Virus record (IMG/VR): IMGVR_UViG_3300037325_000137
Span: 14,376-78,375 of that record
Strand: one strand, 5' to 3'
Length of the DNA: 64,000 nucleotides
From: a virus
This document shows positions 29,128 to 60,812 of this stretch, one piece after another. Below the pieces are notes generated by a model, which had not been told where the DNA came from, made no database searches, and saw nothing but the letters and a program-made list of their open reading frames with translations. The stretch's first letter is position 1; each line of letters begins with the position of its first letter. The position numbers and the translations under genes were made by a program.

Positions 29128-29349
29128 TTAGCACACATTAAAACTATCTAATATATATTTCGCTAATTTTAAGGCTTGCTCTTTATTTAAGTAAGTATGT
29201 GCATCTCCTTGAAAATCTCCCTCTATCTCAATCTCAAAGTCATTATCCTTGTCTACTGGGTTTATCACAAAATTATCAAGTGATAAACGTGTGCTAACAC
29301 TTGGTATAGTGCATTGCTCGGTTTCGGTTTTTTTACTATCTGTATTCAT
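29128..29349 (-). CDS. Cassette-encoded hypothetical protein
   Basis: Starts in att loop; TAA stop is the TTA of the core site. Confidence 0.6.
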   Translation of the reverse strand: MNTDSKKTETEQCTIPSVSTRLSLDNFVINPVDKDNDFEIEIEGDFQGDAHTYLNKEQALKLAKYILDSFNVC

Positions 29350-29417
29350 AATTCAAAGTTTTTGTGTAATTAATTAAGTTCGTGCTATAAGGTCGCAACG
29401 ACACCATACCATATCCG
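29128..29417. mobile_element. Solitary integron-like gene cassette
   Basis: Starts G|TTAGCACACATT; own R'' AAACGTGTGCTAAC; arms tggtatagtgcattgc / gcaacgacaccatacca; ends CCG|TTA. Confidence 0.8.
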
Positions 29418-29420
29418 TTA

Positions 29421-31079: not shown

Positions 31080-31223
31080 GGTTTTAGTTTTTAGTATTTT
31101 TTTTTATATTTTCTCTTAGTCTTTTAAATTCATTGAATTCTATAAAATCATTGTTAAATAAAAGACTTACTGCTTCTAACAAGTCTAATTGAATAGGTGT
31201 GTAATTTACCATAATATTGTTTT

Positions 31224-31616
31224 TTAATAGTTGTCTCGGATTAGGTTGAGCATATATGATTTACTTATGTTAAAACTCTTTCCTTTAGACACCCATTTGA
31301 TGAATTTTGTTTCAGATCTGTTTCCTTGGTTAGAAACAATTTTTTGTGGATTTGTTTGAACTTTAAAGAAACTAAGGTCTTTATGCTCTTCTGACGCCTT
31401 ACCATCTATTTCTACAACTCCTATATCCATGAGTTCAGATAGCCTTGCTGTAACTGTTTGATGCTTCATTTTAAGAACATCACATATAGAATCTTTGTTA
31501 GGGGAAGTTAAATATTTATTGTTTACATCTATAAACTTATAGATTCTAATAGCATCTGTTTCTTTTTTACCGCTTTCAATTTGATTCTTAAAAGCTTTAT
31601 ATGATTTTTCACTCAT
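31224..31616 (-). CDS. Winged-HTH-like protein
   Basis: LKMKHQTVTARLSELMDIGVV. Confidence 0.55.
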   Translation of the reverse strand: MSEKSYKAFKNQIESGKKETDAIRIYKFIDVNNKYLTSPNKDSICDVLKMKHQTVTARLSELMDIGVVEIDGKASEEHKDLSFFKVQTNPQKIVSNQGNRSETKFIKWVSKGKSFNISKSYMLNLIRDNY

Positions 31617-31619
31617 GGC

Positions 31620-31853
31620 TTATGGTTCTTTAGTTGTTTTCTTATATTCATTAACAAATCGTTGAGACTCAAATATAATTTCGTCCATTTCTTCGCAAGT
31701 CAATGTTAAACTATGTTCTTGACTCATGAAGTTAAAAAAATTTTGATATTGACTTGAGTGCCTTTGCCTGTCCATTTCTTCATTATATTGAGCTTCTGCT
31801 TCTCCTTGTGCTTGATTGTAAGCGTTGTATTCATCTTCGCTGCTATGGTTCAT
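31620..31853 (-). CDS. Hypothetical protein
   Basis: 77-aa ORF. Confidence 0.45.
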   Translation of the reverse strand: MNHSSEDEYNAYNQAQGEAEAQYNEEMDRQRHSSQYQNFFNFMSQEHSLTLTCEEMDEIIFESQRFVNEYKKTTKEP

Positions 31854-32189
31854 TGCTTATGGTTATTTAGTGAGTTTTATTAGTTCGTTTTTTAAATCCA
31901 TTGCTGATCTTTTTAATGTTCCGCTTTCTTTGCATCCTTGAAAAGCATATTCGTCTTTGTTTGCTCTTTTTCTCATTTCACTTAATCTCTCTTGAAATCT
32001 ATTGATCTCATTCTGTACTGTAATTAGGTCTTCGTATCTCATAGTCTAGTTTTAATAATTTGTTTCATTTTTTGTTTACCTGAGCAATTAGCCCAATGAT
32101 TACTTATTCCGAATATTCCAGAAGGTAATATAGCTTCACAAGTTGTGCATCTATATTTATTATCTTCGATTCTTTCAAATTCCATATTT

Positions 32190-33062
32190 TTATTTTCTAA
32201 AGGAGTTTCCTTTAAATTGAATTATGTTGAACATAGAAAATAAACGATCATAAACTCTACCACCGTATCTATTTTCAAATTGTGCTAATCCAGAATCTAG
32301 ATTACCAACTTCACCATCTATAAAATTGCAGTTTATATGAGTGATTAATTTCTTGTCATATCTTCTTTCAATAATATCTTTAAACACATCGACCTTACCA
32401 TAATTACTTGCTACCTTTTCTGTAAGTACATCATCAAAACACCTTTTACCTCTTAGGTATTTAGTGTCAAATTCTTCTTTTTCATCATTTTTAGTAGATT
32501 CAAACTCATGGACTACATCATTTGCTGAAAACAATTTAAAAGTGTTTGTAGTACCTATCAAGCATTTATCCAATGCTCTCATAATAGAACTCTTGCCATT
32601 ACCGTACCCACCAATAATCAACATACCTTTTTCTAAACTTGGTTGTGATAATTCCGTTAGGTTATCGCATAGTTTAAATTTTTCAAAATTATCGGATAGA
32701 TAATAAAGCAAAGGTTCAATGTTTTTAACTGTGTCTTGATTGCTATAATTAAAATCGCAACCGTTCTGTTCTTTGTAAACCTTTAAAAAGTATTTCCATA
32801 TTTGACTTGAAGTAGGTATTATCTCCTTAAGTTCCTCTTTCGGTTCTCTTACTGATTTCAGATACTCTATGCGTTTAGATTCTGCTTCTGGACTCAATGC
32901 CCTTGTTTCATCAAACTCTTCTATAGATTTTAATGCACTACCAACCGTTTCGTTAGGAAATTCCTTAGAGAACATGTCAAGCTGGTTTTCGCTAAGGTTT
33001 AATAGATCATACTTTTTTAAAGCATTGTATTTATTAAAGCCTATTTTATTTATTTCCATCAT
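32190..33062 (-). CDS. DnaC/IstB-like P-loop ATPase (helicase loader)
   Basis: GGYGNGKS Walker A, CFDDV Walker B, RYGGRVYDRL; follows initiator gene. Confidence 0.8.
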   Translation of the reverse strand: MMEINKIGFNKYNALKKYDLLNLSENQLDMFSKEFPNETVGSALKSIEEFDETRALSPEAESKRIEYLKSVREPKEELKEIIPTSSQIWKYFLKVYKEQNGCDFNYSNQDTVKNIEPLLYYLSDNFEKFKLCDNLTELSQPSLEKGMLIIGGYGNGKSSIMRALDKCLIGTTNTFKLFSANDVVHEFESTKNDEKEEFDTKYLRGKRCFDDVLTEKVASNYGKVDVFKDIIERRYDKKLITHINCNFIDGEVGNLDSGLAQFENRYGGRVYDRLFSMFNIIQFKGNSFRK

Positions 33063-37446: not shown

Positions 37447-38754
37447 TTATTCATTTATGATTTCGTAAGTAATATCACCACCTTCCCAATCTGGCTTTTC
37501 TACAAGTAGTTGATAGCCATTTTCAGTAGACCAAGACAAAACTTCATTTAAAGAGTTTTTATCTAAGAAGCTACAATCAAAATGCAAAGCTTTTATATCC
37601 CCAATAACTAAAGCTCCTAACTTTAATGCTGCTATGTATTTAGAGCTTGTAGATATTTGGCTAGTAGATAATGGAAAGCCATTATATAGCAAGTTGTTAT
37701 CTTCTGAAATAGTAAACTCCTTTGGCATATTAGCATTGGCAACTAGATTAGCTTTTTGCTCTAGTATTGATTTAAGATTATCCTCATGTAATTGAGTATT
37801 AGCTTTAGCTTGTAAACCTTCTTTTCTCCAATCATTAAATGTTTTAACGTCACTAGAGTAGACGTTATATTTTTCTAGTTTTTTATAAACATCTTCTATT
37901 TCTTGATCTATTTCTTGAAGACTATTGTAAGCTGGTTGATCTAAACTGGTTAATTGCTTAGTAGGTTTAGGCTCTGGCACTTCTTTAAGTAAGTCCTCCA
38001 TCCCTTTAAAATCTATAAAAGAACCTACAACACTTCCTTCATATTCTTTTAGATTCGAAATAGATTTGCTTATAAACTGAATTGATTTTCTAAGTTTTTC
38101 TTGAACATCGTTAAACTCTAATGTTTCTTTTTGATGCTCTTCATTTTCTTTAGTCCATTTGTCTTGTAAATCCTTATTAGACTTGATTAAAGCTTCTTTC
38201 TTTTCTTTAACACCATCTAAGTCGGGTTTGGATCTTTCGATTGGCTTGGTGTAATCGAAAGCTCTTAATCTTTTCAACTCTCTATTGGCATCTGCTCTTA
38301 AGTCGTATTGCTCTTTATAATCAGCATCTAGTCTAGATGTGTCTACACCTAGAATCTCTAAAACTTTTTCGGTCTGTTTAGTGGACGAGCTGGCTATGAA
38401 GTCATCTATGCTAAATTTTTTACCAAAGTATCTTTCTCCGATAGCCTTTAGTACACCTGTGGTCATTTTGATACCTTCTTTTGTTGTAAAGGTAAAAGAC
38501 TCTGTTTTTTCCGTAAAGCTCCACTTAATAACAGATCCGTCAGTAAGTTCCATTTCATTAAAGCCTTTGCTTTCTCCTTCTTTTACAATAACAGGAGGTT
38601 TAACAGATTGAAATCTATCTATTAAGCCTTTTAAAATACTTGACTTACCTTGATTATTTGCAGCAACCATCATTATTGATTGACCATCTAGGATAACTTC
38701 TTTTTGAGAAATCGCTTTAAAATTTTCGACTCTAATTGTTTTGATCTTTGACAT
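37447..38754 (-). CDS. SMC/RecF/SbcC-like ABC ATPase
   Basis: IRVENFKAI, AANNQGKSS Walker A, long coiled coil, ISTS signature, LHFD Walker B. Confidence 0.75.
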   Translation of the reverse strand: MSKIKTIRVENFKAISQKEVILDGQSIMMVAANNQGKSSILKGLIDRFQSVKPPVIVKEGESKGFNEMELTDGSVIKWSFTEKTESFTFTTKEGIKMTTGVLKAIGERYFGKKFSIDDFIASSSTKQTEKVLEILGVDTSRLDADYKEQYDLRADANRELKRLRAFDYTKPIERSKPDLDGVKEKKEALIKSNKDLQDKWTKENEEHQKETLEFNDVQEKLRKSIQFISKSISNLKEYEGSVVGSFIDFKGMEDLLKEVPEPKPTKQLTSLDQPAYNSLQEIDQEIEDVYKKLEKYNVYSSDVKTFNDWRKEGLQAKANTQLHEDNLKSILEQKANLVANANMPKEFTISEDNNLLYNGFPLSTSQISTSSKYIAALKLGALVIGDIKALHFDCSFLDKNSLNEVLSWSTENGYQLLVEKPDWEGGDITYEIINE

Positions 38755-38755
38755 T

Positions 38756-39511
38756 TTATTTGTTTTTATAATTTCCGTTTAACATATCAAAACCTTTTAA
38801 GTCTTGAACCTCGTAGTGTTTCCATTCTTCTTCTAAAACAATACTTATTTTTCTAGTTACAGTCCATCCAGATTTTTCTAGCATCTGTTCTTGAATGCGT
38901 AGTTGTAGAGCCAACTTAGATAGTTTACTAGTGGCAAGGGTTATTTCTTGTGGCAAGTTTTTGAAATTTGTAGTACCATGATCATCAAAATTTACATTTA
39001 CCTTATAATCAACCAAAATACATTCTTTTCTATCTTGATCTGTGACAATTAAATTATCAACTAAGGCACAAACATCATTTTCTACATCAGAAACTAAAGA
39101 TTCTGGAAAGGATTGACCTCTTAAGCCTAGATTTTTTGCGTAAATAAAAAAGTCTTTTACTATGGCTTTAATAATTGGGTGCTTTATATTAAAACACCTT
39201 TCTCCATTCTTTTTTAAGTTACGTCTATAAAGTAGTTCGTATTCAATTGCTTCATGAATAGCAGTTCCAAAACCTCTAGCAATGTTTCCGCTTAATTCCC
39301 AAGCTTTTTCAATAGTTTCTTTTGGTATTTGCCAATTTACCTCACACCTATCTGCAACCTCTTCTGAATCAAATTCTTCTATATATCGTTTTGAGAACGT
39401 AGTAGCACCGCTTAGTATTCTATCTTTATAAACGTATCTATGATCTATTGGATCAAAGTTTATAATCAAGTCCTCGTTAAAGGACTTGATGTTGTTTTTC
39501 TCTAGTAGCAT
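38756..39511 (-). CDS. PD-(D/E)XK exonuclease-like protein
   Basis: GTAIHEAIE, PE, VD, LVDYK motifs. Confidence 0.7.
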   Translation of the reverse strand: MLLEKNNIKSFNEDLIINFDPIDHRYVYKDRILSGATTFSKRYIEEFDSEEVADRCEVNWQIPKETIEKAWELSGNIARGFGTAIHEAIEYELLYRRNLKKNGERCFNIKHPIIKAIVKDFFIYAKNLGLRGQSFPESLVSDVENDVCALVDNLIVTDQDRKECILVDYKVNVNFDDHGTTNFKNLPQEITLATSKLSKLALQLRIQEQMLEKSGWTVTRKISIVLEEEWKHYEVQDLKGFDMLNGNYKNK

Positions 39512-39514
39512 ATC

Positions 39515-39943
39515 TTAATCTTTAGAAGCACTTACTTTAAGATAACCTTTACCAAATTTTATTATTGGCATAGGTAATATTTCACCGTCTGTTGTTACAT
39601 TACTATTTGTGTTTCCAGAAATAAAACTGTCGTGCATTCGTTTATATTTTGTTTCCATGTCTTTCACGTAATCTTTAGCACTCATAACTTCTGGAACACC
39701 GCTATAATCGTAAGTTTTTCTACCAGAAACCAAAGTAACCTTGAAACCTCTGTAGCCGTTAGGGTGTTCGTTTGCTTGATTAGCTATATCTTCTGCGTTT
39801 TCTGTCTCAAACTGTTTAACAGCTCCTAGAATAAGGTCTGCTGTAGTTTTAAGTTCACGTAAATCGATAAGGGCATCAAGTTCAGATAACATACCGTCAT
39901 CTACTTTTTGTACTGTGTCTTGTAATTGTTGTAATAAATTCAT
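39515..39943 (-). CDS. Hypothetical phage protein
   Basis: 142-aa ORF in recombination block. Confidence 0.55.
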   Translation of the reverse strand: MNLLQQLQDTVQKVDDGMLSELDALIDLRELKTTADLILGAVKQFETENAEDIANQANEHPNGYRGFKVTLVSGRKTYDYSGVPEVMSAKDYVKDMETKYKRMHDSFISGNTNSNVTTDGEILPMPIIKFGKGYLKVSASKD

Positions 39944-40222
39944 AGTTTTTAGTTTTAAATTTTAGTCTCTGCAATTTTCTTTTAAATCTGCCTTGGCACA
40001 TGAAGTAGAGCAAAAATCTTCTGCCGTTGGTGTACCACAATAGCTACAAGTATTATCGTGTTCAACTTCATCAAAATATTCTTGATCGTCTAAGTCTCTT
40101 GTTTCTGGCATAATTAATCTTTTCTAAATGTTGGTCTTTCTTGCTCTTGAACCCAATCCAAATAAACTTCGTTATCATTTATTTGTGAGCTTTCAAACTC
40201 TCTTTGGTCATGGTGTAACTCT

Positions 40223-40435
40223 TTACTTCCTTTCATGATCGTATAGTGATTTAAGCCTTAAATAAAAAGGCGTGAATGTTTTTTTACCGCTATTAGCTAA
40301 AAGTATTTCTAAATGAGAATCAACAAACTTTTTCTTGTTAACTACAACTGTTGCTTCGTTTAGATTAAATGGTTCTGAATCTAATTCATGAGTCTTAAAA
40401 AACTCTACCATTTCTTTGAAGTCAGTATTACTCAA
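40223..40435 (-). CDS. Hypothetical protein
   Basis: 70-aa ORF. Confidence 0.5.
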   Translation of the reverse strand: MSNTDFKEMVEFFKTHELDSEPFNLNEATVVVNKKKFVDSHLEILLANSGKKTFTPFYLRLKSLYDHERK

Positions 40436-41081
40436 CTCCTTTTTTTAAATTATCAATTCTAATAGTTATTTGATTTCTTTGATCTTCTGTTAGATCATAA
40501 TAAGATATAGAAGACTCTAATGCTTTAATATCTTTAGATACTATAACATTGTTTTGAAACGTAGTATCTGGAAGCTTTGGCTTATTAGCTACTAGTGTTG
40601 GTGCTTGTTTTGGTAGCTGGTGGTCGTTTGAGTGTGTAGCCTCTGTGTCGTCTATTTTCCCTACAGGCGTTAAGAAAGCATATAGCAAACAGTTCTTTAA
40701 AGCGTAAGTGGTTGCTTTTCCAGCTCCTTTATCTTGTGGGTCTACTCCATGTCCATATCCTGCTAAAACTTGACTCTCGCCAGAAGTGTGAAGTAATAAA
40801 TACTTAGTTGTCACCTTAGTAAATACTGATTGCTTTTGCTTAATACTAGTTACACCGTTCCAAACTTCTTCTTGATCCCATCTATCAATTTGAGTAGACT
40901 CTTCAATCCCGATTGGTAGAATACAAAGACCGTTTCTAACTAAAGCATCGTTAAAAATCTCTTTTACATCCGAGTCCTTAGTGCCATTATATGCTGAATT
41001 ACCCTTTCCTACTTTACTGTTTTTCTCCATGCCCTTAACTTCTGACATTACCGCTACAATAGCTTCTGCTAAATTTTTCAT
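40428..41081 (-). CDS. erf: ERF-family single-strand annealing protein
   Basis: LLHTSGES...DPQDKGAGKATTYALKNCL...DD motif. Confidence 0.75.
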   Translation of the reverse strand: MKNLAEAIVAVMSEVKGMEKNSKVGKGNSAYNGTKDSDVKEIFNDALVRNGLCILPIGIEESTQIDRWDQEEVWNGVTSIKQKQSVFTKVTTKYLLLHTSGESQVLAGYGHGVDPQDKGAGKATTYALKNCLLYAFLTPVGKIDDTEATHSNDHQLPKQAPTLVANKPKLPDTTFQNNVIVSKDIKALESSISYYDLTEDQRNQITIRIDNLKKGVE

Positions 41082-41815: not shown

Positions 41816-42337
41816 TTACTTATCGTTAAGATGTTTTTCTAGGAATAAGCACATATCTTTTACGAGAATAGCTTTGTGATGTTTGTCTTTTATTTTTGAC
41901 TTTTGCTTGTAGGGTATGTGAAAGTTGTAAAACTGTTCAGAATCTTTATCGTAGTAGATATGACACTTAGGTTCTATAAGTCTATTGATCTTAATAGATT
42001 TTTCGTCTTCAAATATTTTATGGGTTTTTAACTCCCAATTATTATTTAAAGTGATTTTTAGATTTGCAAACTGTATAATTCTAGAAATATCATCAACTAT
42101 TGATTCAGAAAATATAATTTCTAGTAGATCCCTATTTACCTTTGTATTCTCTATGATTTCATCAAGGCTTATATTTTCGTCTTTAAATCGTTTCTTAGCC
42201 ACTTCAAAAATAAACGACAAACTAGACTCTCTTTGAATTTTTACTCTCGTGTTTGTCTTTCTGGACTTGTTTCTTGCTACTTCAAGCTTTCTGTAATATT
42301 CATCTTGAAAATTAATTTCATTTATCTTGTTTTTCAT
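41816..42337 (-). CDS. Hypothetical protein
   Basis: 173-aa ORF. Confidence 0.5.
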   Translation of the reverse strand: MKNKINEINFQDEYYRKLEVARNKSRKTNTRVKIQRESSLSFIFEVAKKRFKDENISLDEIIENTKVNRDLLEIIFSESIVDDISRIIQFANLKITLNNNWELKTHKIFEDEKSIKINRLIEPKCHIYYDKDSEQFYNFHIPYKQKSKIKDKHHKAILVKDMCLFLEKHLNDK

Positions 42338-42566
42338 AAAAATCGATTATTGAATTGTGAGCCTTTAATATTTTAATTAGATTCATATAAGTGCTATTAT
42401 CTTGTGTTTCTTTTATAAATATTTCTAAGAACTCTTTGTGAGTAATAGGCTTGTAATTTATAAAGAAATCATATTTAAGACTAGGATTAGATGTGATTAT
42501 ATTTCCTATTTCTTGAATATTGTAGGATTTAAACCTGTGACCTAAATTATTTCTAATTTTATACAT
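42318..42566 (-). CDS. Hypothetical protein coupled to integrase stop
   Basis: 82-aa ORF. Confidence 0.45.
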   Translation of the reverse strand: MYKIRNNLGHRFKSYNIQEIGNIITSNPSLKYDFFINYKPITHKEFLEIFIKETQDNSTYMNLIKILKAHNSIIDFYEKQDK

Positions 42567-43375
42567 TAAATAGGCATTTGAATTTTGCTTAAATGATTTT
42601 TTGAAACGTGGGTGTAAATTTCAGTTGTCTTAGAGCTTTGATGCCCCGCAATAGATTGGATTATCCTTAAATCAGTACCTCCCTCTAGTAAGTGAGTGAA
42701 GCAACTATGCCTAAGCTGATGCATATAAGCATCTTCTTTAATATACTTTTTAATTATTTTATTACAAGATGTGGCTGAATACTGTAAAGAAGACTGACCG
42801 TTAAAAAGATATTCTTTTGGTCTATGTTTTTTAAAGTAATCCCTAAGTGTTTTTAGTAGCCCATTAGACAAAGGAACAACTCTATCTTTCTTGCCTTTAG
42901 CTTGAATTATATGAATCAATCCTCTATTTGAATCAATGTTTTCTATTTTCAGATTTATTATTTCTGAAACCCTTAATCCGCAACTATATGCTGCGGATAA
43001 AATAGCTTTATGTTTCATGTTTTTTATAGATAATATTTTTTCTGTAAGAATTTTTTTATCTATTATTTGGGGTAGCTTTTTTTCTTTTCTAGGTCTTGAA
43101 AAATCTACTTTATCGTATTTTTTATTCAGAACTTTTTTGTAAAGAAACTTGATTGAGCTTATTATTTGATTTTGTTGCGATATAGAGCTGAAATTATAAT
43201 TTTCTAAATAAGATTTAAAATCATTACTATCTAGCTTAGAAGGAGACTTTTTATTGACTCTTAAAAATTCTTCAACGTAATAACTATATATTTTTACAGT
43301 ATTTTTACTGTAGTTAAAATAGTTCAATTTTGAAATGAAATTCTGCAGAAAAGTGTGTTTAGTTTTGCTTAACAT
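42566..43375 (-). CDS. Tyrosine recombinase (integron-integrase-related, no IntI-specific insertion)
   Basis: SAM-like N-domain (YSKNTVKIY, SQQNQIISSIKFLY); catalytic set GLR, KGKKDR, HQLRHS, GH, IYTHV all intact. Confidence 0.92.
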   Translation of the reverse strand: MLSKTKHTFLQNFISKLNYFNYSKNTVKIYSYYVEEFLRVNKKSPSKLDSNDFKSYLENYNFSSISQQNQIISSIKFLYKKVLNKKYDKVDFSRPRKEKKLPQIIDKKILTEKILSIKNMKHKAILSAAYSCGLRVSEIINLKIENIDSNRGLIHIIQAKGKKDRVVPLSNGLLKTLRDYFKKHRPKEYLFNGQSSLQYSATSCNKIIKKYIKEDAYMHQLRHSCFTHLLEGGTDLRIIQSIAGHQSSKTTEIYTHVSKNHLSKIQMPI

Positions 43376-43430
43376 ATTGATTTATATTGATTTGTTAGTT
43401 ATGGTTGATATATAGTAGTTAGCAAACATT
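43374..43430 (+). other. attI-like primary recombination site
   Basis: ATATTGATTT x2 (43374-43393) then G|TTAGCAAAC core at 43418 with no partner hairpin arm; array begins here. Confidence 0.65.
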
Positions 43431-43709
43431 ATTCAAATAATCACAGTACATTTTTGCCTGTTCTTCGCTATGTATAAAGAACACTACCTCTATACCTTTG
43501 CCATCGAGTACCGCTTTACCTTGTTTTCTGCCAACTCTAAAAGGTGGTGTATATTTATTAGCATCATAACGTTTGCTAACACCAGATAAAATTAATGCCT
43601 CGTCTACTGCATTTTTAATAAGTCCTATACATTCTTCTTTTGCTAATGAAGTTCCTACCCAACTTTTTAAATTTTGTGCATGTTTATCAATTATTTGCTC
43701 TTTAGTCAT
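43419..43709 (-). CDS. Cassette 1 hypothetical protein
   Basis: Starts in att1 loop; ALILSGVSKR is encoded by the att arm; stop is the core TTA. Confidence 0.65.
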   Translation of the reverse strand: MTKEQIIDKHAQNLKSWVGTSLAKEECIGLIKNAVDEALILSGVSKRYDANKYTPPFRVGRKQGKAVLDGKGIEVVFFIHSEEQAKMYCDYLNNVC

Positions 43710-43772
43710 TGTCTATTTATTTAATTATTGTTATTATTTATCGGCACTAATCTTATCTGCGGTACGTTAGCT
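43571..43772. repeat. att site 1
   Basis: gctaacaccagataaaattaatgcc ... ggcactaatcttatctgcggtacgttagc. Confidence 0.85.
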
Positions 43773-43780
43773 ACAAGTGC

Positions 43781-44500
43781 TTAATTTAGTTGATTAAACA
43801 AAGTTGGTGCTTCAATCTCTTTTTCTTTTTTTTTCCCCACCCTTTCACTCGCAATATCAAAATAATCCTGTTGCATTTCAATTCCAATAAATCTTCTATT
43901 TAGGTTTTTACAAGCAACTCCTGTTGTACCACTACCCATAAAAGGGTCTAATACTACTTCGTTTTCATTAGTTGAGTTGTTTATATAAAATTCCATTAAT
44001 TCTATTGGTTTTTCTGTTGGGTGTACTTTACTCCCAATTATATTATTAAAAGAATGTACTGTTTTGCTTCCGCCAATGTCATTTATGTATTTAGATTTTC
44101 CTTTTCTAAAAAATATAGTGTACTCGCAATTCTTCATATAAAATTGAGAAGGTGTGCAGTTGTTTTTTTGCCAAACTAAAAAGTTTTGTATTTTAAATCC
44201 TGCTTTTTCTATCTCGTTTGCCATTTTTAGTAAATTAGAAGAGTTTACCATCACATAGTTTTGAGTTCCATCTTTTAGTATTCTAAACATTTCTGGCAAC
44301 CATTCACTAAATTTAGGAACACTCCTCATTAGTTCTCTATTTCCTTTCAATATACCTTTTGGTCTAATACTGTTTTTGCCATTACTATCACCTCCTGTTA
44401 TTATTTTATAAGGAGGGTCAGTAACTACACAATCAATACTTTCGCTTGGTAATGTTTTTAATATTTCAAGGGCATCACCCATTTTTAAATCTATATTCAT
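43781..44500 (-). CDS. Cassette 2: DNA amino-methyltransferase (N6/N4, beta class)
   Basis: VTDPPY, HPTEKP, LDPFMGSGTTG motifs. Confidence 0.93.
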   Translation of the reverse strand: MNIDLKMGDALEILKTLPSESIDCVVTDPPYKIITGGDSNGKNSIRPKGILKGNRELMRSVPKFSEWLPEMFRILKDGTQNYVMVNSSNLLKMANEIEKAGFKIQNFLVWQKNNCTPSQFYMKNCEYTIFFRKGKSKYINDIGGSKTVHSFNNIIGSKVHPTEKPIELMEFYINNSTNENEVVLDPFMGSGTTGVACKNLNRRFIGIEMQQDYFDIASERVGKKKEKEIEAPTLFNQLN

Positions 44501-44597: not shown

Positions 44598-44657
44598 AGT
44601 AGGTAACACTGTATAAAAGCCATTGAAAATAACGGCTCTTATACCCATCCGTTAGCA
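44598..44657. repeat. att site 2 (short)
   Basis: taacactgtataaaagcc ... ggctcttatacccatccgtta. Confidence 0.8.
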
Positions 44658-44661
44658 ACAA

Positions 44662-44904
44662 TTAATTGCCCTGTAAGTAATTGTCTGCAATCCATTCTTT
44701 ACTTACAAACCTATTTCCTCCACCTTTTTCAAGGCTTGTTAAAAGGTCAATTAACAGTTCCCTTCGGTTGCTAACATCGTTTAACCGTAATTGCTCGGTT
44801 ACGTACTTATCTATGAAGTCTGTTAACCATTCTACCTTTTCATTTCCAGTCATATCGTTTCTTGATACAAGTTGGTTTAATTTTTCAATCTCTGTTATTT
44901 TCAT
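44662..44904 (-). CDS. Cassette 3 hypothetical protein
   Basis: Starts in att3 loop; QLRLNDVSNR is encoded by the arm. Confidence 0.6.
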   Translation of the reverse strand: MKITEIEKLNQLVSRNDMTGNEKVEWLTDFIDKYVTEQLRLNDVSNRRELLIDLLTSLEKGGGNRFVSKEWIADNYLQGN

Positions 44905-44968
44905 CTGTTCTTATTTATTAAGTTTTGTTATTAATTCACGCAACTACGGTTACACGTAGCCGTTGTAG
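44766..44968. repeat. att site 3
   Basis: aacatcgtttaaccgtaattgc ... gcaactacggttacacgtagccgtt. Confidence 0.85.
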
Positions 44969-44973
44969 TGCAT

Positions 44974-45270
44974 TTACATTACGTTTCGCTCGATACTTAT
45001 GTTTTTATCAGTAACAACTACTATAAAGCTTGTTCTTTGCACCGCCAAAGGGGCTTTTTTTTCAAGATGTTTAAGAACGTGGTTTGCACCATTATTTACT
45101 ATATCACGTCTAGTTTTTAATTGATGAAGTTTGTTTTGTACTTGCTCAATTTCGGCTTCCAATTCTTCTTTCTCTAAAGCTATATTCACTAATATATCAG
45201 CCCCTTTTATTTCCTCGCCTTGAATAAGGTCAGTAATTCCAGAGAAACTTAGGTCGTCAATTTTTTTCAT
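44974..45270 (-). CDS. Cassette 4 hypothetical coiled-coil protein
   Basis: ORF 44974-45285; likely start MKKIDD at 45270. Confidence 0.55.
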   Translation of the reverse strand: MKKIDDLSFSGITDLIQGEEIKGADILVNIALEKEELEAEIEQVQNKLHQLKTRRDIVNNGANHVLKHLEKKAPLAVQRTSFIVVVTDKNISIERNVM

Positions 45271-45281
45271 AGCAAAAAAAC

Positions 45282-45416
45282 GCACTACAACACTGTATAA
45301 AAATAATAGCCTGTTGTAGTGTCTTTTTAGTGGCTATTACTCACTTATTAATTAATTGTTTAACTTAAACTTTTCGCTTATTTATTCGGCTACTATTCTT
45401 ATACTAAACGTTGTAA
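45282..45416. repeat. att site 4
   Basis: aacactgtataaaaataatagcc ... ggctactattcttatactaaacgtt. Confidence 0.88.
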
Positions 45417-45671: not shown

Positions 45672-45877
45672 TACTTACAACACTATATATAATTAATATA
45701 AAAGGGGCGCAGTCCAACTATCCGTTATTCCTTTCGGGTCAAGCCTAAGCCCCCACGGAAGGAACGTTTTACAGGCTTTGGACACCTTCAATTTCACTAT
45801 CTAAAACGCTGTTGGTAAACCCACTAATTTCTGCATTTTTAACCCCTTTTAAACTAATCATATATTTTACGTTATAA
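45672..45877. repeat. att site 5
   Basis: aacactatatataattaatataaaagggg ... ccccttttaaactaatcatatattttacgtt. Confidence 0.8.
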
Positions 45878-46144
45878 ACAATACTCTTTTTGTGTATATG
45901 GTTCAGAGTAGAAGCATTTATCAGTACTATCAAATTTAATATTTCTATACCAAGTTATTTCTGTATTTGTTGTTTTTCCTGTTCTACTACTGCAATCACA
46001 ATCTTTATGACATTGGCAACTACCATTATCAATAGAAGTGTATTTTTTAGTAAATATTCTATAAGAAACACCATCTATAATTGTGATTTGCAATGCTTCC
46101 ATTTCTATATTCAATCTTTTAGGGTTTAACAATCTTTCTCGCAT
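45872..46144 (-). CDS. Cassette 6 Cys-rich protein
   Basis: CQCHKDCDC motif; likely start MRERLL (46144) or MEALQ; stop is the core TTA. Confidence 0.55.
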   Translation of the reverse strand: MRERLLNPKRLNIEMEALQITIIDGVSYRIFTKKYTSIDNGSCQCHKDCDCSSRTGKTTNTEITWYRNIKFDSTDKCFYSEPYTQKEYCL

Positions 46145-46155
46145 AACTTCCGTAC

Positions 46156-46253
46156 AGTTTATAACACAGGCTATAAATAAAAGCCCTGTCAAGGTTATTG
46201 TTGTGAATCGAACTTTGTGTTTAGGGCTTCAATTCATAGCCGAGCCGTTATCT
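46156..46253. repeat. att site 6
   Basis: aacacaggctataaataaaagccct ... agggcttcaattcatagccgagccgtt. Confidence 0.85.
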
Positions 46254-46424
46254 TTAATAATCAAACTCTTCCTCATTTAATACATCAAAGTGAATATCCT
46301 CATTTAATACATCAAAGTGAATATCCTCTATTTTGTTTTTAATAAACAGTCTTTTAATTCGATAGATAACTAAAGATAACAATGTATAAAATGCATAGCT
46401 TAATTTCGTTCTTAAATTTTTCAT
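46254..46424 (-). CDS. Cassette 7, 56-aa protein with duplicated EDIHFDVLN (not in ORF track)
   Basis: MKNLRTKLSYAFYTLLSLVIYRIKRLFIKNKIEDIHFDVLNEDIHFDVLNEEEFDY; 27-bp tandem repeat 46270-46323. Confidence 0.5.
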   Translation of the reverse strand: MKNLRTKLSYAFYTLLSLVIYRIKRLFIKNKIEDIHFDVLNEDIHFDVLNEEEFDY

Positions 46425-46511
46425 CTGTTCTGTTTTTAAAGTTTATAATTTATAATTAATTCAAAGTCTGTGGTGTTTAGGTCGCTACGCACCTTATACT
46501 AAACGTTGTGT
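46371..46511. repeat. att site 7
   Basis: aacaatgtataaaatgcatagc ... gctacgcaccttatactaaacgtt. Confidence 0.85.
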
Positions 46512-46519
46512 GTAATACT

Positions 46520-46762
46520 TTATTTAGGTTCGTTTACAGCATTACTATCTACTTTTTTCCAAGGACGTTCTATCATATTACAACCTGCTTGATACCAAGT
46601 TTGTATTTGTAATTTATTACATTTTGTACACTTTCTAAAATGAGCATATCTATTATCTTCTTTTCTACCACCGTCCCAATACTTATAAGGATGATATAAA
46701 TTAAAAAAACAAAGTAATTTTTGCAATGCTTTAGGTTTGTCTATTCTTAAAACTTTTTCCAT
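46520..46762 (-). CDS. Cassette 8 small Zn-binding-like protein
   Basis: LLCFFNLYH ... RKCTKC motif. Confidence 0.6.
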   Translation of the reverse strand: MEKVLRIDKPKALQKLLCFFNLYHPYKYWDGGRKEDNRYAHFRKCTKCNKLQIQTWYQAGCNMIERPWKKVDSNAVNEPK

Positions 46763-46793
46763 TTTAATAAAGTTTGTGGCTTAAATTCCGTAT

Positions 46794-46892
46794 TACACAC
46801 AACAATGTATATAGTTTATAAGCCAATTAATATTTGTTTTTAATTTGTAAATTTCTGATATGGCTTACAAAACCATATACTCAACGTTAGGC
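46794..46892. repeat. att site 8
   Basis: aacaatgtatatagtttataagcca ... tggcttacaaaaccatatactcaacgtt. Confidence 0.88.
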
Positions 46893-47209: not shown

Positions 47210-47306
47210 AGTGCCTAACAATAGCTAAAGTTAATAGCCTCAATAGGTCTTGTTATAATTTGATGGTTAGTATTAAAGGCTACTAACCTTAGCCTAGACG
47301 TTATGA
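47210..47306. repeat. att site 9
   Basis: aacaatagctaaagttaatagcct ... aggctactaaccttagcctagacgtt. Confidence 0.88.
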
Positions 47307-47471: not shown

Positions 47472-47566
47472 AGCACATAACAATGTATAAAATTAATGCG
47501 CTATGATAATTAGTGTTAAATTTTTAAGTATGTGGTTAGCGCACTAATCTTATACTAACTGCAATG
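47472..47566. repeat. att site 10 (GTT core missing)
   Basis: aacaatgtataaaattaatgcgcta ... tagcgcactaatcttatactaact, then gcaatg. Confidence 0.75.
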
Positions 47567-47569
47567 TTG

Positions 47570-47818
47570 CTATTTAAAGTTTTGCCTAAACGGCTTGTTA
47601 CATTTTGGACAAGAAGTGCCTAAATACAAGCCTTTGATTATCGGTTCGCAACACTGTTCGCTCTGCCTTACAACAACGGGTATAGAAAATAATTCAGAAG
47701 GCATCAGTCTTTCTATCACGTCTATTGCACTCCATATTTCTCTTGATTCATAACTGTGATGTATTGAGTCAAAGTGTTCTGCTCTTTTTTCTAGTGTTTT
47801 AATAACGTCTGCTTTCAT
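47570..47818 (-). CDS. Cassette 11 protein with C-terminal CPKC zinc ribbon
   Basis: Starts in att11 loop; ELFSIPVVVRQ is encoded by the arm. Confidence 0.6.
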   Translation of the reverse strand: MKADVIKTLEKRAEHFDSIHHSYESREIWSAIDVIERLMPSELFSIPVVVRQSEQCCEPIIKGLYLGTSCPKCNKPFRQNFK

Positions 47819-47878
47819 CTTTTAAGTTTTTGCGTTTTAAATCCTCCTAAATTAAATTCCATACCCAAACCGTTAGCA
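47665..47878. repeat. att site 11
   Basis: aacaacgggtatagaaaataatt ... aattaaattccatacccaaaccgtt. Confidence 0.75.
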
Positions 47879-48022: not shown

Positions 48023-48078
48023 TAATGCTAACAATATGTAAAAAACATTAAAACGATGTGTTATACTAGACGTTAGCA
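48023..48078. repeat. att site 12 (minimal, ~56 bp)
   Basis: gctaacaatatgtaaaaaacat ... atgtgttatactagacgttagc. Confidence 0.7.
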
Positions 48079-48357
48079 AACATTTATGTTGTTGCTATCT
48101 ATAAAGCTTTTAGGATTTCCGCAACCTATTAAAAACTCTGCTCCGTTACCTAATTTAAAGTAACATCTATCCCAATCATTGCTTCTATCGAAAGTAAAAT
48201 TTTCACCTTTTTTTATGGTATAATAACACCCTTTCCAACTCAAATTCTCCCTTCTATTGTTAGGTATATTACCCACATCAGTGGCTTCTATGGGTGTGCT
48301 ACCATACCTACCTTTATCAATAAAAACTCTAATATCTTCTGTTGCTTGTAAATTCAT
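48073..48357 (-). CDS. Cassette 13 hypothetical protein
   Basis: ORF 48073-48378; likely start MNLQAT; ends NVC* on the core site. Confidence 0.6.
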   Translation of the reverse strand: MNLQATEDIRVFIDKGRYGSTPIEATDVGNIPNNRRENLSWKGCYYTIKKGENFTFDRSNDWDRCYFKLGNGAEFLIGCGNPKSFIDSNNINVC

Positions 48358-48366
48358 AATTAAACG

Positions 48367-48463
48367 ATTTGCTAACACAACCTATACACCATAAAGCAAT
48401 ATAGTATTGTGCTAATATTAAACATTGTGCTACGCTTTACGGTGCATAGCTTTACCGTTGGCG
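48367..48463. repeat. att site 13
   Basis: aacacaacctatacaccataaagc ... gctttacggtgcatagctttaccgtt. Confidence 0.85.
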
Positions 48464-48469
48464 GTAATA

Positions 48470-48820
48470 CTACATTAGTACCTTATCCATCATTTCATTT
48501 ATGTTCTCCGCAATTTTTTCATCATAACCTCTATTGTAAAATTCATCGCCAGTAGTCAAATGATAAGTACCTATGTTATCCAAATACTGTTTCATTTTTT
48601 CATAAGGTTCAGTATTTTCATACCCTATCAAATTAAGATAAGACCAATAACATTTAATAGAAAATTGCTCTGTGTTTGTTCCTCTATCTGTTCTTTTTTC
48701 GTTTTGTCTTTGTATCCATAAGGCTTGTTCTTTCTTGTAGTCTGTGTACTTTAAAGCCGTACTACTGCCAACAAAAAATATAGCAAATGCTTTTCGTAAT
48801 CTTTGGGTAAATTGTTTCAT
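48470..48820 (-). CDS. Cassette 14 hypothetical protein
   Basis: Starts in att14 loop; AFAIFFVGSS is encoded by the arm. Confidence 0.6.
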   Translation of the reverse strand: MKQFTQRLRKAFAIFFVGSSTALKYTDYKKEQALWIQRQNEKRTDRGTNTEQFSIKCYWSYLNLIGYENTEPYEKMKQYLDNIGTYHLTTGDEFYNRGYDEKIAENINEMMDKVLM

Positions 48821-48886
48821 ACTTCTAATTTTTAGTTCATTTAAGTTAGAGTGTTGTTGGCACTTGCCATCTTCAAACCGTTAGCC
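48763..48886. repeat. att site 14
   Basis: aacaaaaaatatagcaaatgc ... gcacttgccatcttcaaaccgtt. Confidence 0.8.
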
Positions 48887-49155: not shown

Positions 49156-49281
49156 GGTGGCTAACAATGTATATAGCAAATAGCCTTATTAGCCATTTTA
49201 GAAACTACTTGCTTGTTTATAATTTATTTACTTTTTACTTAATTCTGTGATAGGCTACTTGCCATATACTAAACATTGTAG
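49156..49281. repeat. att site 15 (core ATT instead of GTT)
   Basis: aacaatgtatatagcaaatagcct ... aggctacttgccatatactaaacatt. Confidence 0.85.
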
Positions 49282-51760: not shown

Positions 51761-51791
51761 TGTGTCAATTTTTTGCGTGAATTAGTAAAGG

Positions 51792-52528
51792 CTATTTTTG
51801 ATTGCTTTTTTTGTCGTTTTTAGTTTGCATAACTCTGTTAAAATATTGGGTGTGTTTTCCTTTTGCTAGAGCTACCATTTCTGCTAGAATCCTTTGAGGT
51901 GGGTTAGCCACTCCCATGATTTTATTTACTAGATAATAGTTTTCCGTTTCTTGCGTGTAAACTCTTCCTGTAACGCTACTTGTATAAACTATTTTATAAA
52001 CACCTTGCCTGACAAATGTTATTTTAAAATCCTCTCTTTTTAGTTTTAATGCCATGATTTTAGTTTTTTAGGTTGTAAACTACGATTTGCAGTTCCTCAT
52101 TAGATAATTCATCGATTCCAAAAATAGTTCCGTGTTCATTTTCTACTAATATTTCTTCATTTTCCTCTATCAAGGTTGCCCAATCTAAATTATCAAGTTG
52201 AAATTTATAAGTTGAATTAACGTCTGCTTTTTTGATTTGTTTTATGTTATAAAGTCTTGTACTCATGATTTTGTTTTTTATTTTGTTTATTTTTAGTTTT
52301 TTAACTGTTAATGTAAAACGCTATATCCTTTGCGTTTAATAAAGGTTTTTTAATTACTAGTTTTTCTAAACTAGGTTTATAGTGTTGGTTTTTCCGTATC
52401 TCCATAAATAAGTCTATCTCATTTGAAAATTCAGACTTTACAGTTTCTGTGAACCAATTTACAAATCTCTCTGGATCTTGGTCAATTAAATTTTTAGGTA
52501 TTGGATTAATGATAGCTTCCATAATCAT
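51792..52528 (-). CDS. Three small hypothetical early genes (51792-52055, 52060-52266, 52301-52528)
   Basis: Tightly packed ORFs with A-rich leaders. Confidence 0.5.
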
Positions 52529-52996: not shown

Positions 52997-53202
52997 TGTG
53001 TTGTTTTTTTTGAGTGAATTAATTTAGGTATTCTTTAGTGTAGAAATTTCTTAATTCAGTTAGGGTAAATTTCTTTTTCCATTGCGTTGTTTGCTCTAGG
53101 TAATATCCTTTTTGTCTTATTGCATTACCATCATTAAACCATACATTAAAATCTATTTCATTTATTATCATTGTGTCAATTTTTTGCGTGAATTGGTAAA
53201 GG

Positions 53203-53956
53203 TTATTTTTGCAGTAAAATTTTACGATTTTTAATAAGCTGTTTTATCTCTTCTATCGACTTGTTTTCGTCAATAAATAGAGAATGTATGATTTTACTTA
53301 AACGTTCCTTAGTGGGCTTAAATTCTTGGTGGTATCTAGTGATTCCGTTTTGTTTCGCTGCAATATCTATACATCTACTTAAAAACTTACTAGCTTTAGC
53401 GGTTAAGTATCTTCTATTTGAACACTTTATAAATTCCGTTTCGTTTCTCATGGTTTTAGTTTTTTAATTTCTTCTTTGTGAAAGTTTAAAAAATCTCTTC
53501 TTTCTCCTTGGTACATAGAATGTAATGAAGACTCATACTTATGCCCGAACTTTTCAAAAAATAAAGGTTTAATATAATTATTAAAATCATCGTATTCTTT
53601 TATTTGCTTTTCGCTTTCGTCGTTTAATAGTGTTGCAAAATCAATTATTTCTTGAACTGTGTTTTCTGCTTTGTATATTGGCTTCATAGTAAAAAGTGTT
53701 TTCTCTGTATTATTCATAATTATATTTTTTATATATTATTTAAAAGAAAATTCTTGAATTGTTCCGTGATATAAAATGTGTCTTGATACCATTTTCCTTG
53801 ATAATAAACACCTTGTATTTCAAATGGTTTTTTTTCTCTTGTATTACTTTTTCTTATTTCTTTAGTAAAATAATACACCCCTTCGTAATACAAACTTAAT
53901 TCATCAAATTTATTTGATTTTCTAGGTTTGTTACTGTAAACTTGTAATGATTCCAT
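53203..53956 (-). CDS. Three small hypothetical early genes (53203-53451, 53448-53717, 53729-53956)
   Basis: Tightly packed ORFs. Confidence 0.5.
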
Positions 53957-54538: not shown

Positions 54539-54799
54539 GATTTTGTTTTTTAAAATTTTGCGTGAATTATTAAATTTATCGCTTTTTAGTTATAGGAGTT
54601 AAAAAAAAAGTTTATTTCTTCCGTTGTCGCTCCTAATTTAGCAAGCTCTTCACGCTCTGCGTCTTGTTCTTTTTCTGAAACGTAAATTTTAGGAATTCCG
54701 TTTATAGGAATTGATAGGTCTATGTGGTGGTTATTGTTTTTAGTTTTCATAATCTGTATATTTTTTGCGTGAATTGGTAAAGGTTATTTTTTGCTCGAA

Positions 54800-59854: not shown

Positions 59855-60061
59855 ATGAAAGTTGAATTAGATAGAAAAGGATTAGAAACATTAGTAAAAG
59901 GTAGCCAACCTTATTACAATGATTTTGAAAACGAGTTAGTAAAAAAAGCTGGACACTCTTATAATGATCAATATGGTAGGACTAGTTGGCACAACTTAAG
60001 TGACCTTACAGAAAAAGAACTCTATAATTTATATGAAATATGTAGGAATAGTTGGACTTAA
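59855..60061 (+). CDS. Hypothetical protein, probably cassette-derived
   Basis: Followed immediately by GCCTAAC core and an att arm. Confidence 0.55.
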   Translation: MKVELDRKGLETLVKGSQPYYNDFENELVKKAGHSYNDQYGRTSWHNLSDLTEKELYNLYEICRNSWT

Positions 60062-60148
60062 ATGTTGCCTAACGTCAAGGCTAAAGTTAGTAGCCGTTAA
60101 TTACTAACCATCAAACTATAACTAGACCTATTTGGGCATTTTAAAATT

Positions 60149-60313
60149 ATGAATAACTTAAGGTTTTGGAGAAAATTAAAAGGATGTACTTGGTATAAGC
60201 ACCGATTTACTAAAGATGCAAACGAGTTGACTTTTGCAGAAGGAAAAACTTGGTGGGCAAGGTATGGCAAAATTAATAGGTACTCTGATCTAGTAGGAAC
60301 AGAAGTTTATTAA
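60149..60313 (+). CDS. 54-aa cassette protein (not in ORF track)
   Basis: MNNLRFWRKLKGCTWYKHRFTKDANELTFAEGKTWWARYGKINRYSDLVGTEVY. Confidence 0.55.
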   Translation: MNNLRFWRKLKGCTWYKHRFTKDANELTFAEGKTWWARYGKINRYSDLVGTEVY

Positions 60314-60374
60314 ATGGCTTACAACGTACCGCAGATAAGATTAGTTGCGTGAATAATAACTTAAATTAATAGAA

Positions 60375-60527
60375 ATGAAAAACAGAATAATTGAAATATG
60401 TGAGTTAGGAAAACCACAAAGTATAATTCATAGAGAAAATGAACCGATTACAGAACTAATCAAAACCACTGACTTAGTAGAAGAACTTAACAAGCAATTA
60501 ATTTTATCTGGTGTTGTAGCCAGTTAA
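60375..60527 (+). CDS. 50-aa protein encoded in att loop and arm (not in ORF track)
   Basis: MKNRIIEICELGKPQ...NKQLILSGVVAS. Confidence 0.5.
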   Translation: MKNRIIEICELGKPQSIIHRENEPITELIKTTDLVEELNKQLILSGVVAS

Positions 60528-60540
60528 TTAAATATATAAA

Positions 60541-60762
60541 ATGAAAGTAGAAAGAAAATATACAGCGATGCAGATATCGACAAAAACCGTTGACAATACT
60601 GTAAAAGTAAGCTTTGAATATGGTGAAATTACAGGACCATATTATAGCCAAGAACACCCGACAGAGGTTTTTGACACGGAGGACGAGGCAATAGCCTACG
60701 CATATAAGTACTGCAAATATTGTAGATGGATGATTGTTCCAATAGTTACTTTTGATAACTAG
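60541..60762 (+). CDS. Cassette hypothetical protein
   Basis: 73 aa between matched cassette ends. Confidence 0.6.
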   Translation: MKVERKYTAMQISTKTVDNTVKVSFEYGEITGPYYSQEHPTEVFDTEDEAIAYAYKYCKYCRWMIVPIVTFDN

Positions 60763-60812
60763 ACCTTAATTGGCTACAACATCGGATAAACTCAATAAAA
60801 AATATAAATAAA

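Follow-up and report, generated by a model that had tools for sequence, protein, structure and literature searches.

Integrons, both those of class 1 and the chromosomal integron of Vibrio cholerae (integrase VchIntIA, 2A3V), combine a recombinase gene and an insertion site with a row of single-gene cassettes. Integron integrases (IntI) carry an extra segment, the I2 helix, which is used in the recognition of folded attC sites. To our knowledge, classical integrons are rare or absent in Bacteroidota and Bacillota. The additional domain near patch III is an accepted hallmark of IntI, its acquisition is presented as having opened single-strand recombination, and IntegronFinder uses it to separate integrons from CALINs (attC clusters without an integron integrase) (PMC4792948, PMC7790495, PMC4889954). 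Recombinases that lack intI_Cterm and lie beside attC sites were judged by Cury et al. 2016 (PMC4889954) not to be IntI, and a role as integron integrases was argued against; the recombinases in question, four of which were placed between IntI and Xer, had fewer than three neighboring attC sites. Qi et al. 2023 (PMC9892861) described CALINs in phages, including P12002L with two attC sites, but reported no cognate recombinase and did not mention Xer.

The phage locus described here resembles each of these systems in part. With integrons it shares the three-part organization, imperfect hairpins with outer AAC...GTT boxes, some of which are canonical (GCCTAAC / GTTAGGC), the pairing of a cassette's first bases with its own far end, replacement of the cassette at the insertion site, a SAM_4 N-terminal domain and a fold that matches 2A3V (TM 0.75). 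Unlike an integron integrase, the phage enzyme is without the IntI insertion (23 versus 54 residues), scores 158 bits where 265 are required, and belongs to a separate clade. Furthermore, the phage recombinase and cassette ORFs are co-directional, with the array upstream of the gene, whereas the classical layout is divergent; the loops in the phage array are long, and the carriers are phages of Bacteroidota. The phage CALINs (PMC9892861) are similar in that they place attC-like sites beside small genes and DNA methyltransferases, in virulent phages of marine flavobacteria, but the arrays reported here include a dedicated recombinase together with an attI-like box that is conserved. The enzymes of Cury et al. 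2016 (PMC4889954) are likewise insert-less and located beside attC sites; in contrast to those cases, the linkage reported here is found in dozens of loci, with up to 16–18 sites and a conserved box. Finally, the recombinase has the compact two-domain architecture, without an arm-binding domain, of the Xer tyrosine recombinases (XerC/D, XerA 4A8E / 5HXY), but it falls below the XerA, XerC and XerD cut-offs, carries SAM_4 and not SAM_1, lies in a separate clade, occurs in hosts that keep their own XerC/D, and is associated with cassette arrays instead of dif. Our literature searches found no published description of such a system.

The window, by which we mean the whole 64,000-nucleotide stretch of DNA that was analyzed, spans bases 14376–78375 of a virus record that represents a complete genome (78,375 bp with direct terminal repeats) and whose source run is a salt-lake metagenome. 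It has a G+C content of about 30%, and as far as 58 kb nearly all of its genes are encoded on the minus strand. The gene under study is the following:

42566..43375, minus strand: gene for a tyrosine recombinase of a compact, insert-less family (269 aa, ATG start) with SAM_4 and Phage_integrase domains.

On its 3′ side (lower coordinates) are an Erf-like annealing protein, an exonuclease and an AAA protein, and on its 5′ side, on the gene strand (higher coordinates), is a run of small ORFs. Two ORFs located 3′ of the recombinase have a homologue in none of the related loci. No tRNA was found in the 64-kb window. A megablast comparison of 20 kb to cultured phages detected no more than short patches of similarity, to Cellulophaga and Maribacter phages, which shows that this phage collection contains no close cultured relative.

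The recombinase lacks the 30–50 residue insertion that defines IntI (the I2 helix, ALERKYP region). The first-pass annotation had described a 269-residue protein with about 23 residues between KGKKDR and YLFNG and no ALxRKYP-type segment, and this description proved correct: KGKKDR occupies residues 160–165, YLFNG begins at 189, the interval (VVPLSNGLLKTLRDYFKKHRPKE) is exactly 23 residues long, and neither an RKYP nor an AxxRK motif is present in the full 269-aa protein. We aligned the query and 43 relatives with 14 IntI and the plasmid IntI1 and with XerC/D of Bacteroidota and of one Chromatiaceae genome; the 14 IntI were counted as bona fide on the basis of end-to-end TIGR02249 matches of 380–508 bits. 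The interval comprises 54 residues, ALERKYP included, in all IntI, 29–31 in XerC/D and 23 in 44 of the 44 family members. In the same alignment, the K-box is separated from HxLRH by 100 residues in IntI, 63–69 in Xer and 53–59 in the insert-less family. The active site of the enzyme is complete (R135, K160, H219, R222, H245 and Y254) and invariant in 49 family members, with K160 not on an equal footing with the other residues.

Profile and structure comparisons agree with the residue counts. Pfam identifies PF13495 (Phage_int_SAM_4, N-terminal, 55 bits) and PF00589 (Phage_integrase, catalytic, 128 bits). The reading that the protein is not a bona fide IntI was upheld by HMM comparison, in which it missed the cut-offs of both IntI models (157.7 of 265 bits for TIGR02249, 103 of 435 for NF011946) and skipped the IntI-specific model positions, covering TIGR02249 positions 1–181 and 253–313 only and leaving 182–252 unmatched. 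It also missed the XerD (158.7 of 329.6 bits) and XerC (147.7 of 335.15 bits) cut-offs; its top-scoring NCBIfam model is archaeal XerA NF040815, yet at 180.5 of 220 bits it is below that cut-off as well. In a phmmer search of the PDB, Pyrococcus XerA (4A8E) was the best sequence match (136 bits) and aligned end to end, whereas VchIntIA (2A3V) aligned in two pieces (query 20–180 and 212–267 versus IntI4 16–180 and 260–315), so that IntI4 181–259 has no counterpart and about 48 IntI residues are left unmatched. An AF2 model of the recombinase (pLDDT 87.8) contains no extra helix between the strand 165–168, helix 171–184 and helix 201–211; a short strand and a loop are found at the place of IntI's extra helix. 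The best Foldseek matches of this model are XerA 5HXY (top) and VchIntIA 2A3V (best TM-score, 0.75). As had been anticipated, the standard label is that of an ordinary enzyme: PHROG and Pfam call the protein a phage integrase, and family members are named ‘site-specific recombinase XerD’ or ‘integrase’ in their sources.

In maximum likelihood trees, the 44 sampled family members form one clade (SH-aLRT 96–97, UFBoot 88), the IntI clade (100/100) excludes all 44 of them, and XerC/D fall outside the family clade. IntI was represented in these trees by Gammaproteobacteria and IntI1 only, and the outgroup consisted of long-branched CTnDOT-type integrases; one sequence (L177, from an unpublished genome) was left out of all trees, and two others (L197 and L198) were removed from the outgroup, since one had a branch of 4.3 and the two did not form one group. 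None of our conclusions depends on G049 or G151. In the careful tree the family groups with IntI (95/98), but the alternative grouping with Xer costs only 0.65 lnL and is not rejected by the AU test (p 0.48), so we make no claim about the sister group. A quick tree that grouped IntI and the family with a support of 85 was discarded because the constrained Xer plus family tree was 22 lnL higher, which exposed a poor search. The N-terminal domain is SAM_4 in the family, as in IntI, and SAM_1 in XerC/D. We conclude that the insert-less family is a distinct lineage whose sister group is unresolved. Of the earlier suggestion of a separate or ancestral recombinase lineage, ‘separate’ is thus supported by a clade of its own (UFBoot 88, SH-aLRT 97) apart from IntI (100/100) and XerC/D, and ‘ancestral’ is undecided.

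Upstream of the gene, imperfect hairpins fold from the intergenic regions between 43.6 and 49.3 kb and delimit about 15 cassettes. In the gene sense, a site consists of R″ (xxxxxxAAC), a 4–6 nt spacer, the L″ stem, a loop, the L′ stem, a 2–3 nt spacer and R′ (GTTxxxxxx). The loops span 10–150 nt in this site layout and 45–200 nt in the comparison with integrons, and ORF starts may lie inside them. Stem sequences vary between sites, with complementarity kept inside each site. A strict scan, with a scanner designed on this window, found 13 sites on the gene strand between 43.5 and 48.9 kb, and curation brought the number to 15; over the whole 78-kb genome and both strands it found 21 sites, compared to 2–11 in shuffled sequences. 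It replaced a looser first scan, which was dropped as it gave at least 150 matches per strand versus about 230 in shuffles. The sites are:

43578..43768, minus strand: hairpin site 1, with a 17 bp stem, AAC at the high and GTT at the low coordinate; the loop holds the start of ORF 43419..43709.
44605..44653, minus strand: hairpin site 2, after the methyltransferase cassette (ORF 43781..44500, Pfam N6_N4_Mtase).
44773..44964, minus strand: hairpin site 3, from strict scan and curation.
45289..45412, minus strand: hairpin site 4, from fold, strict scan and curation.
45679..45873, minus strand: hairpin site 5, from strict scan and curation.
46163..46249, minus strand: hairpin site 6, from strict scan and curation.
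46378..46507, minus strand: hairpin site 7, from strict scan and curation.
46801..46888, minus strand: hairpin site 8, with R″ = GCCTAAC, from fold and curation.
47217..47302, minus strand: hairpin site 9, from fold, strict scan and curation.
47479..47568, minus strand: hairpin site 10, atypical, with a longer left spacer and cognate scores of 2–3 of 7 on either side.
47672..47874, minus strand: hairpin site 11, from strict scan and curation.
48030..48074, minus strand: hairpin site 12, short, from fold and curation.
48374..48459, minus strand: hairpin site 13, from strict scan and curation.
48770..48882, minus strand: hairpin site 14, from strict scan and curation.
49163..49277, minus strand: hairpin site 15, in which AAT replaces AAC; taken as the distal end, to the extent that the array could be delimited.
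60058..60796, plus strand: small second set of sites of the same type among plus-strand genes, with inverted copies of sites 9 and 1.

The second set, which was examined in part, contains the own-arm pair GTTGTAGCCA ... TGGCTACAAC; its sites are presumably served in trans by the recombinase encoded at 42566..43375. Except for the methyltransferase, the cassette ORFs have no Pfam match, and they gave two PHROGs of unknown function. An Rfam search of 41–64 kb placed no known RNA family on the hairpins and returned one snoRNA-like match (E 0.004) attributable to chance.

A second kind of pairing connects neighboring sites. The 7 nt that follow GTT complement the 7 nt that precede AAC of the next site, across the intervening ORF, with a mean of 5.93 of 7 and with 11 of the 15 junctions at 6 or more. 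Non-cognate pairs average 2.42, with 2% of them reaching at least 6, and the mean for both flanks of a single site is 2.47. The pairing is weak at two junctions in the window, both around site 10. Stems within sites and flank pairing across ORFs are what excision and insertion of single cassettes, with a crossover at AAC/GTT, would predict, and the two features together are explained neither by terminator hairpins nor by transposon-like inverted repeats. As the stems lie in the sense transcript, they could be selected, also or instead, at the RNA level.

The gene-proximal end of the array meets a conserved element:

43376..43420, minus strand: attI-like junction, at which the last cassette end GTTTGCTAAC (43418–43427, AAC at 43420–43418) is followed by the box TACTATATATC.

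Thirty-one bases separate TACTATATATC from the recombinase ATG (43375), and AAC lies about 42–45 nt before the ATG. The flank of site 1 (GTT|AGCAAAC) pairs with this attI-like end (GTTTGCT|AAC) in 7 of 7 positions. When the 110 nt before the ATG were aligned for related viral loci (62 distinct sequences), most contained the box AAC|TAYYATATATA some 40–55 nt before the ATG, with variable bases on the cassette side of AAC. Cassette ends thus abut the conserved box at AAC|, which makes the box and the cassette crossover point one and the same site.

Several groups of loci have an identical box-to-ATG segment preceded by unrelated sequence before AAC (L004/L005/L010, L014/L015 and L018/L019). The cultured Polaribacter phages Freya_1 and Freya_10 display the same arrangement: a 6.9-kb stretch, 99.94% identical in the two, starts exactly after ...GCTAAC| in one and ...TACAAC| in the other, 60 nt before the integrase ATG, and the sequences that precede this stretch are unrelated. 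That box-proximal cassettes differ in otherwise near-identical phages indicates, on this comparison, recent activity. Cassettes of the window array also recur singly. Logan contigs from three other salt-lake metagenomes carry single cassettes (for example 44962–45324, 45869–46197, 46501–46789 and 48070–48391) at 99% identity, and their similarity to the window stops about 10 nt or less from site cores, exactly so at 46801 and 49163, and also at 44604/5, 47304, 45869 and 46501. These contigs were used for presence and context only, and joints with sides shorter than 30 nt were not used; the contigs do not cover the recombinase gene, which does not imply its absence.

Relatives of the recombinase number in the thousands (263–270 aa, about 266 aa for the family) and include at least 120 clusters with 60–77% identity; where they are named, it is as XerD or integrase. 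For 80 viral homologues (55–67% identical), the density of hairpin sites on the gene strand is 0.85 per kb over the 7 kb that precede the gene, as opposed to 0.10 per kb on the other strand and 0.04–0.07 downstream on the same contigs. Considering only loci with at least 3 kb of upstream sequence, of which the 7 kb before the gene were scanned, three or more co-oriented sites are present in 44 of 48 and, after dereplication at 95%, in 34 of 38, with at least one site in all 38 and up to 16–18 detected sites per locus. The association is therefore with arrays and not with array-less prophage junctions (34 of 38 dereplicated viral loci; 0.85 versus 0.04–0.10 sites per kb), in agreement with the supposition that homologues consistently flank such arrays. 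These loci are derived from metagenomes and include some near-duplicates. Twenty-seven of the 80 viral contigs start no more than 1.5 kb upstream of the gene, as though assemblies break in the array. Own-arm pairing extends to 37 related viral loci (mean 4.99 versus 2.98), reaching 6 of 7 or better in 55% of cognate and 4.4% of non-cognate pairs.

More distant relatives are found in cultured phages. Polaribacter phage Leef_1 (31% identity) carries 5–6 sites upstream of its integrase, five of them well formed and one (7298) weak, and three of these sites show own-arm pairing to the next. No convincing sites were found upstream of the integrase of Cellulophaga phage Ingeline (39% identity), so not all relatives at that distance have a detectable array.

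The label of the gene as XerD or phage integrase causes such phages to be read as temperate, and the integrases of cultured relatives of the Freya and Leef type have been taken as a sign of temperate potential (PMC8776804). The recombinase could be an ordinary lysogeny integrase that inserts the whole phage into a host attB and whose position beside the array would be incidental, with the hairpins serving as terminators or as RNA elements in an early-gene region. Besides the Pfam and PHROG label and the temperate-marker reading of the cultured relatives, two homologues (L082 and L083) on contigs binned into bacterial MAGs are compatible with this explanation. However, a fixed position behind the box and a co-oriented array, as found in 34 of 38 distinct loci, is unexpected for integrases of the attP type; own-arm pairing across ORFs and exact breakpoints at AAC| require crossovers at the sites, not transcription termination; and the window has no tRNA, while the virus record covers the entire 78-kb genome, direct terminal repeats included. 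We consider lysogeny as the sole role of the enzyme improbable, but a dual role in lysogeny and cassette movement is not excluded.

The family also extends beyond viruses. Genome contigs that encode homologues with 40–52% identity belong mostly to Bacteroidota, and also to Bacillota, Nitrospirota and archaeal MAGs. The bacterial proteins have about 100 extra N-terminal residues that match no known family. At bacterial loci the sites are downstream of the gene and on the other strand, at 0.29 per kb compared to 0.03–0.06 elsewhere, and three or more sites of the same type were detected at 8 of the 31 loci with enough flanking sequence by a scanner that had been tuned on phage sites. Such arrays are present, for example, in a 3.5-Mb metagenome chromosome that carries nine 115-nt sites nearly identical to one another, in Aequorivita, in a Flavobacteriaceae isolate and in Desulfitobacterium sp. 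Sab5; own-arm pairing is seen in all of these, and the xxxxAAC| end is near the gene. In five array-bearing genomes, no protein exceeds the IntI cut-off, and the best matches to the IntI model are short recombinases that match it in two pieces. Three other homologue-encoding genomes (Aquimarina, Algoriphagus and a Chromatiaceae MAG) contain a separate XerD above the curated cut-off, and a Cellulophaga XerD is just under it (322.8 versus 329.6).

A different enzyme might be considered for cassette movement. Polaribacter phage P12002L carries at least nine sites of the same type but no homologue of the recombinase, meaning that it must be possible for the recombinase to act in trans, or for a different enzyme to take its place. 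Cassettes could then be moved by host XerC/D or a host-encoded relative, with the phage recombinase doing something else at the box, for example resolving genome multimers or circularizing the genome in the manner of Cre of phage P1. Flavobacterial genomes do encode relatives of the recombinase in addition to XerC/D, Xer recombinases act on a folded single-stranded phage site in the case of CTX phage, and the phage enzyme is Xer-like in length and fold. Nevertheless, cassette ends abut the conserved box at AAC|, so that box and cassette junction coincide; the recombinase gene is the only conserved neighbor of the arrays in both phages and bacteria; and the XerC/D proteins of the hosts differ in their N-terminal domain and group in a clade of their own. 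Given these observations, we attach little weight to such a division of labor. The idea of a degenerate, inactive IntI that recently lost its insertion and left a fossil array can draw on the description of the insertion as ‘not fully conserved’ in an integron-like subgroup (Smyshlyaev et al. 2021, PMC8138268), but it is scarcely tenable with an interval of exactly 23 residues in 44 of 44 sampled members from phages, Bacteroidota, Bacillota and archaeal MAGs, a family clade outside the sampled IntI clade, checked catalytic residues that are invariant in 49 sequences, and box-proximal cassettes that differ in near-identical phages, a sign of recent activity.

Both the recombinase and dozens of its relatives are encoded beside a conserved insertion site where an array ends, which makes cassette swapping the most likely role of the enzyme. 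We thus regard it as probable that the recombinase is the cognate enzyme of a phage-borne, integron-like cassette platform, with catalysis inferred from linkage, as no assay exists for any member of the family. At the level of sequence, the comparative data show linkage to arrays and box, the position of the crossover at AAC/GTT and recent turnover.

We propose the following model for this platform. By analogy with IntI, the recombinase would excise cassettes as circles through recombination between two sites, and the excised cassettes would be inserted at the attI-like box AAC|TAYYATATATA. It would act on the folded hairpin and read the R and L boxes across an asymmetric unpaired spacer without the help of an I2 helix. 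The choice of site and strand might then depend on other features, and our guess is the difference between the unpaired spacers (4–6 versus 2–3 nt). The notion that this lineage handles hairpin sites differently follows logically if the recombinase is the cognate enzyme; no data on the form of the substrate are available.

If a large insert-less clade is indeed tied to arrays and box, it would account for many ‘orphan’ CALINs, including those of phages, and would extend integron-type gene capture to phages and new phyla. The role of the I2 helix would become testable through comparison, and cultured phage–host pairs (Polaribacter phages Freya and Leef) make experiments feasible. The integrase genes of flavobacterial phages, currently used as markers of lysogeny, would be read differently, as such a recombinase may instead, or also, serve the turnover of accessory genes. 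There is also a broader reading, which we offer tentatively and hold to be possible without favoring it: hairpin cassettes would be recombined without an I2 helix by a compact clade that would either show the ancestral condition of IntI or have arrived at a parallel solution, gene capture of this kind would be widespread in phages and in phyla such as Bacteroidota and Bacillota, and many ‘integrase-positive, potentially temperate’ marine phages would not be temperate but would exchange accessory genes with each other and with chromosomal arrays of their hosts that have the same type of site.

The bacterial relatives of the compact tyrosine recombinase are longer than the 269-aa window protein, at about 370 aa, and carry about 100 additional N-terminal residues ahead of the SAM_4 domain, the N-terminal domain of this family. 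No Pfam family was matched by this extension. At their loci, the array is situated past the gene's 3′ end, with its cassette ORFs directed away from the recombinase gene.

Recombinase relatives in bacterial loci
L115: 9653-10789
L121: 9689-10816
L125: 9689-10792
L151: 9674-10801

Directly downstream of the window recombinase gene, an 82-aa ORF (42318-42566, minus strand) overlaps it through an ATGA stop/start and is followed by a 173-aa ORF (41816-42337, minus strand); neither ORF matched a family or had a homologue among 160 related loci.

Array-type hairpin sites also occur outside the main array. A small second group lies amid plus-strand genes at window positions 60058-60796.

Second group of hairpin sites
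60058-60137, plus strand: inverted copy of site 47217-47302
60323-60515, plus strand: site sharing arms with site 43578-43768
around 60511-60796, plus strand: own-arm pair GTTGTAGCCA / TGGCTACAAC

A lone hairpin of the same type (29296-29419, minus strand; AAC ... GTT, 14-bp stem), detected by the permissive scan only, is located amid structural genes, distant from the array.

Past the array, in a stretch where no hairpin sites were found, direct repeats of one 62-nt family (TGTCAATTTTTTGCGTGAATTGGTAAAGG...) are interspersed with small ORFs; this family may represent a repeated promoter.

Copies of the 62-nt repeat
window 51763-51824
window 53174-53235
window 54755-54816

Polaribacter phage P12002L, for which a published analysis reported two attC sites (PMC9892861), contains at least nine array-type sites with own-arm pairing (31118-32924 and 38036-40948, minus strand) that border methyltransferase and small genes. 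No recombinase homologue was found in its genome.

Within the window array, the cassette ORF 46254..46424, which begins in the loop of site 46378-46507, contains a 27-nt exact tandem duplication (46270-46323). The product of the first large cassette (43781-44500, minus strand) is an N6/N4 DNA methyltransferase. Methyltransferase cassettes are also found upstream of the recombinase gene in 13 related loci, and their recurrence is consistent with anti-restriction cargo.
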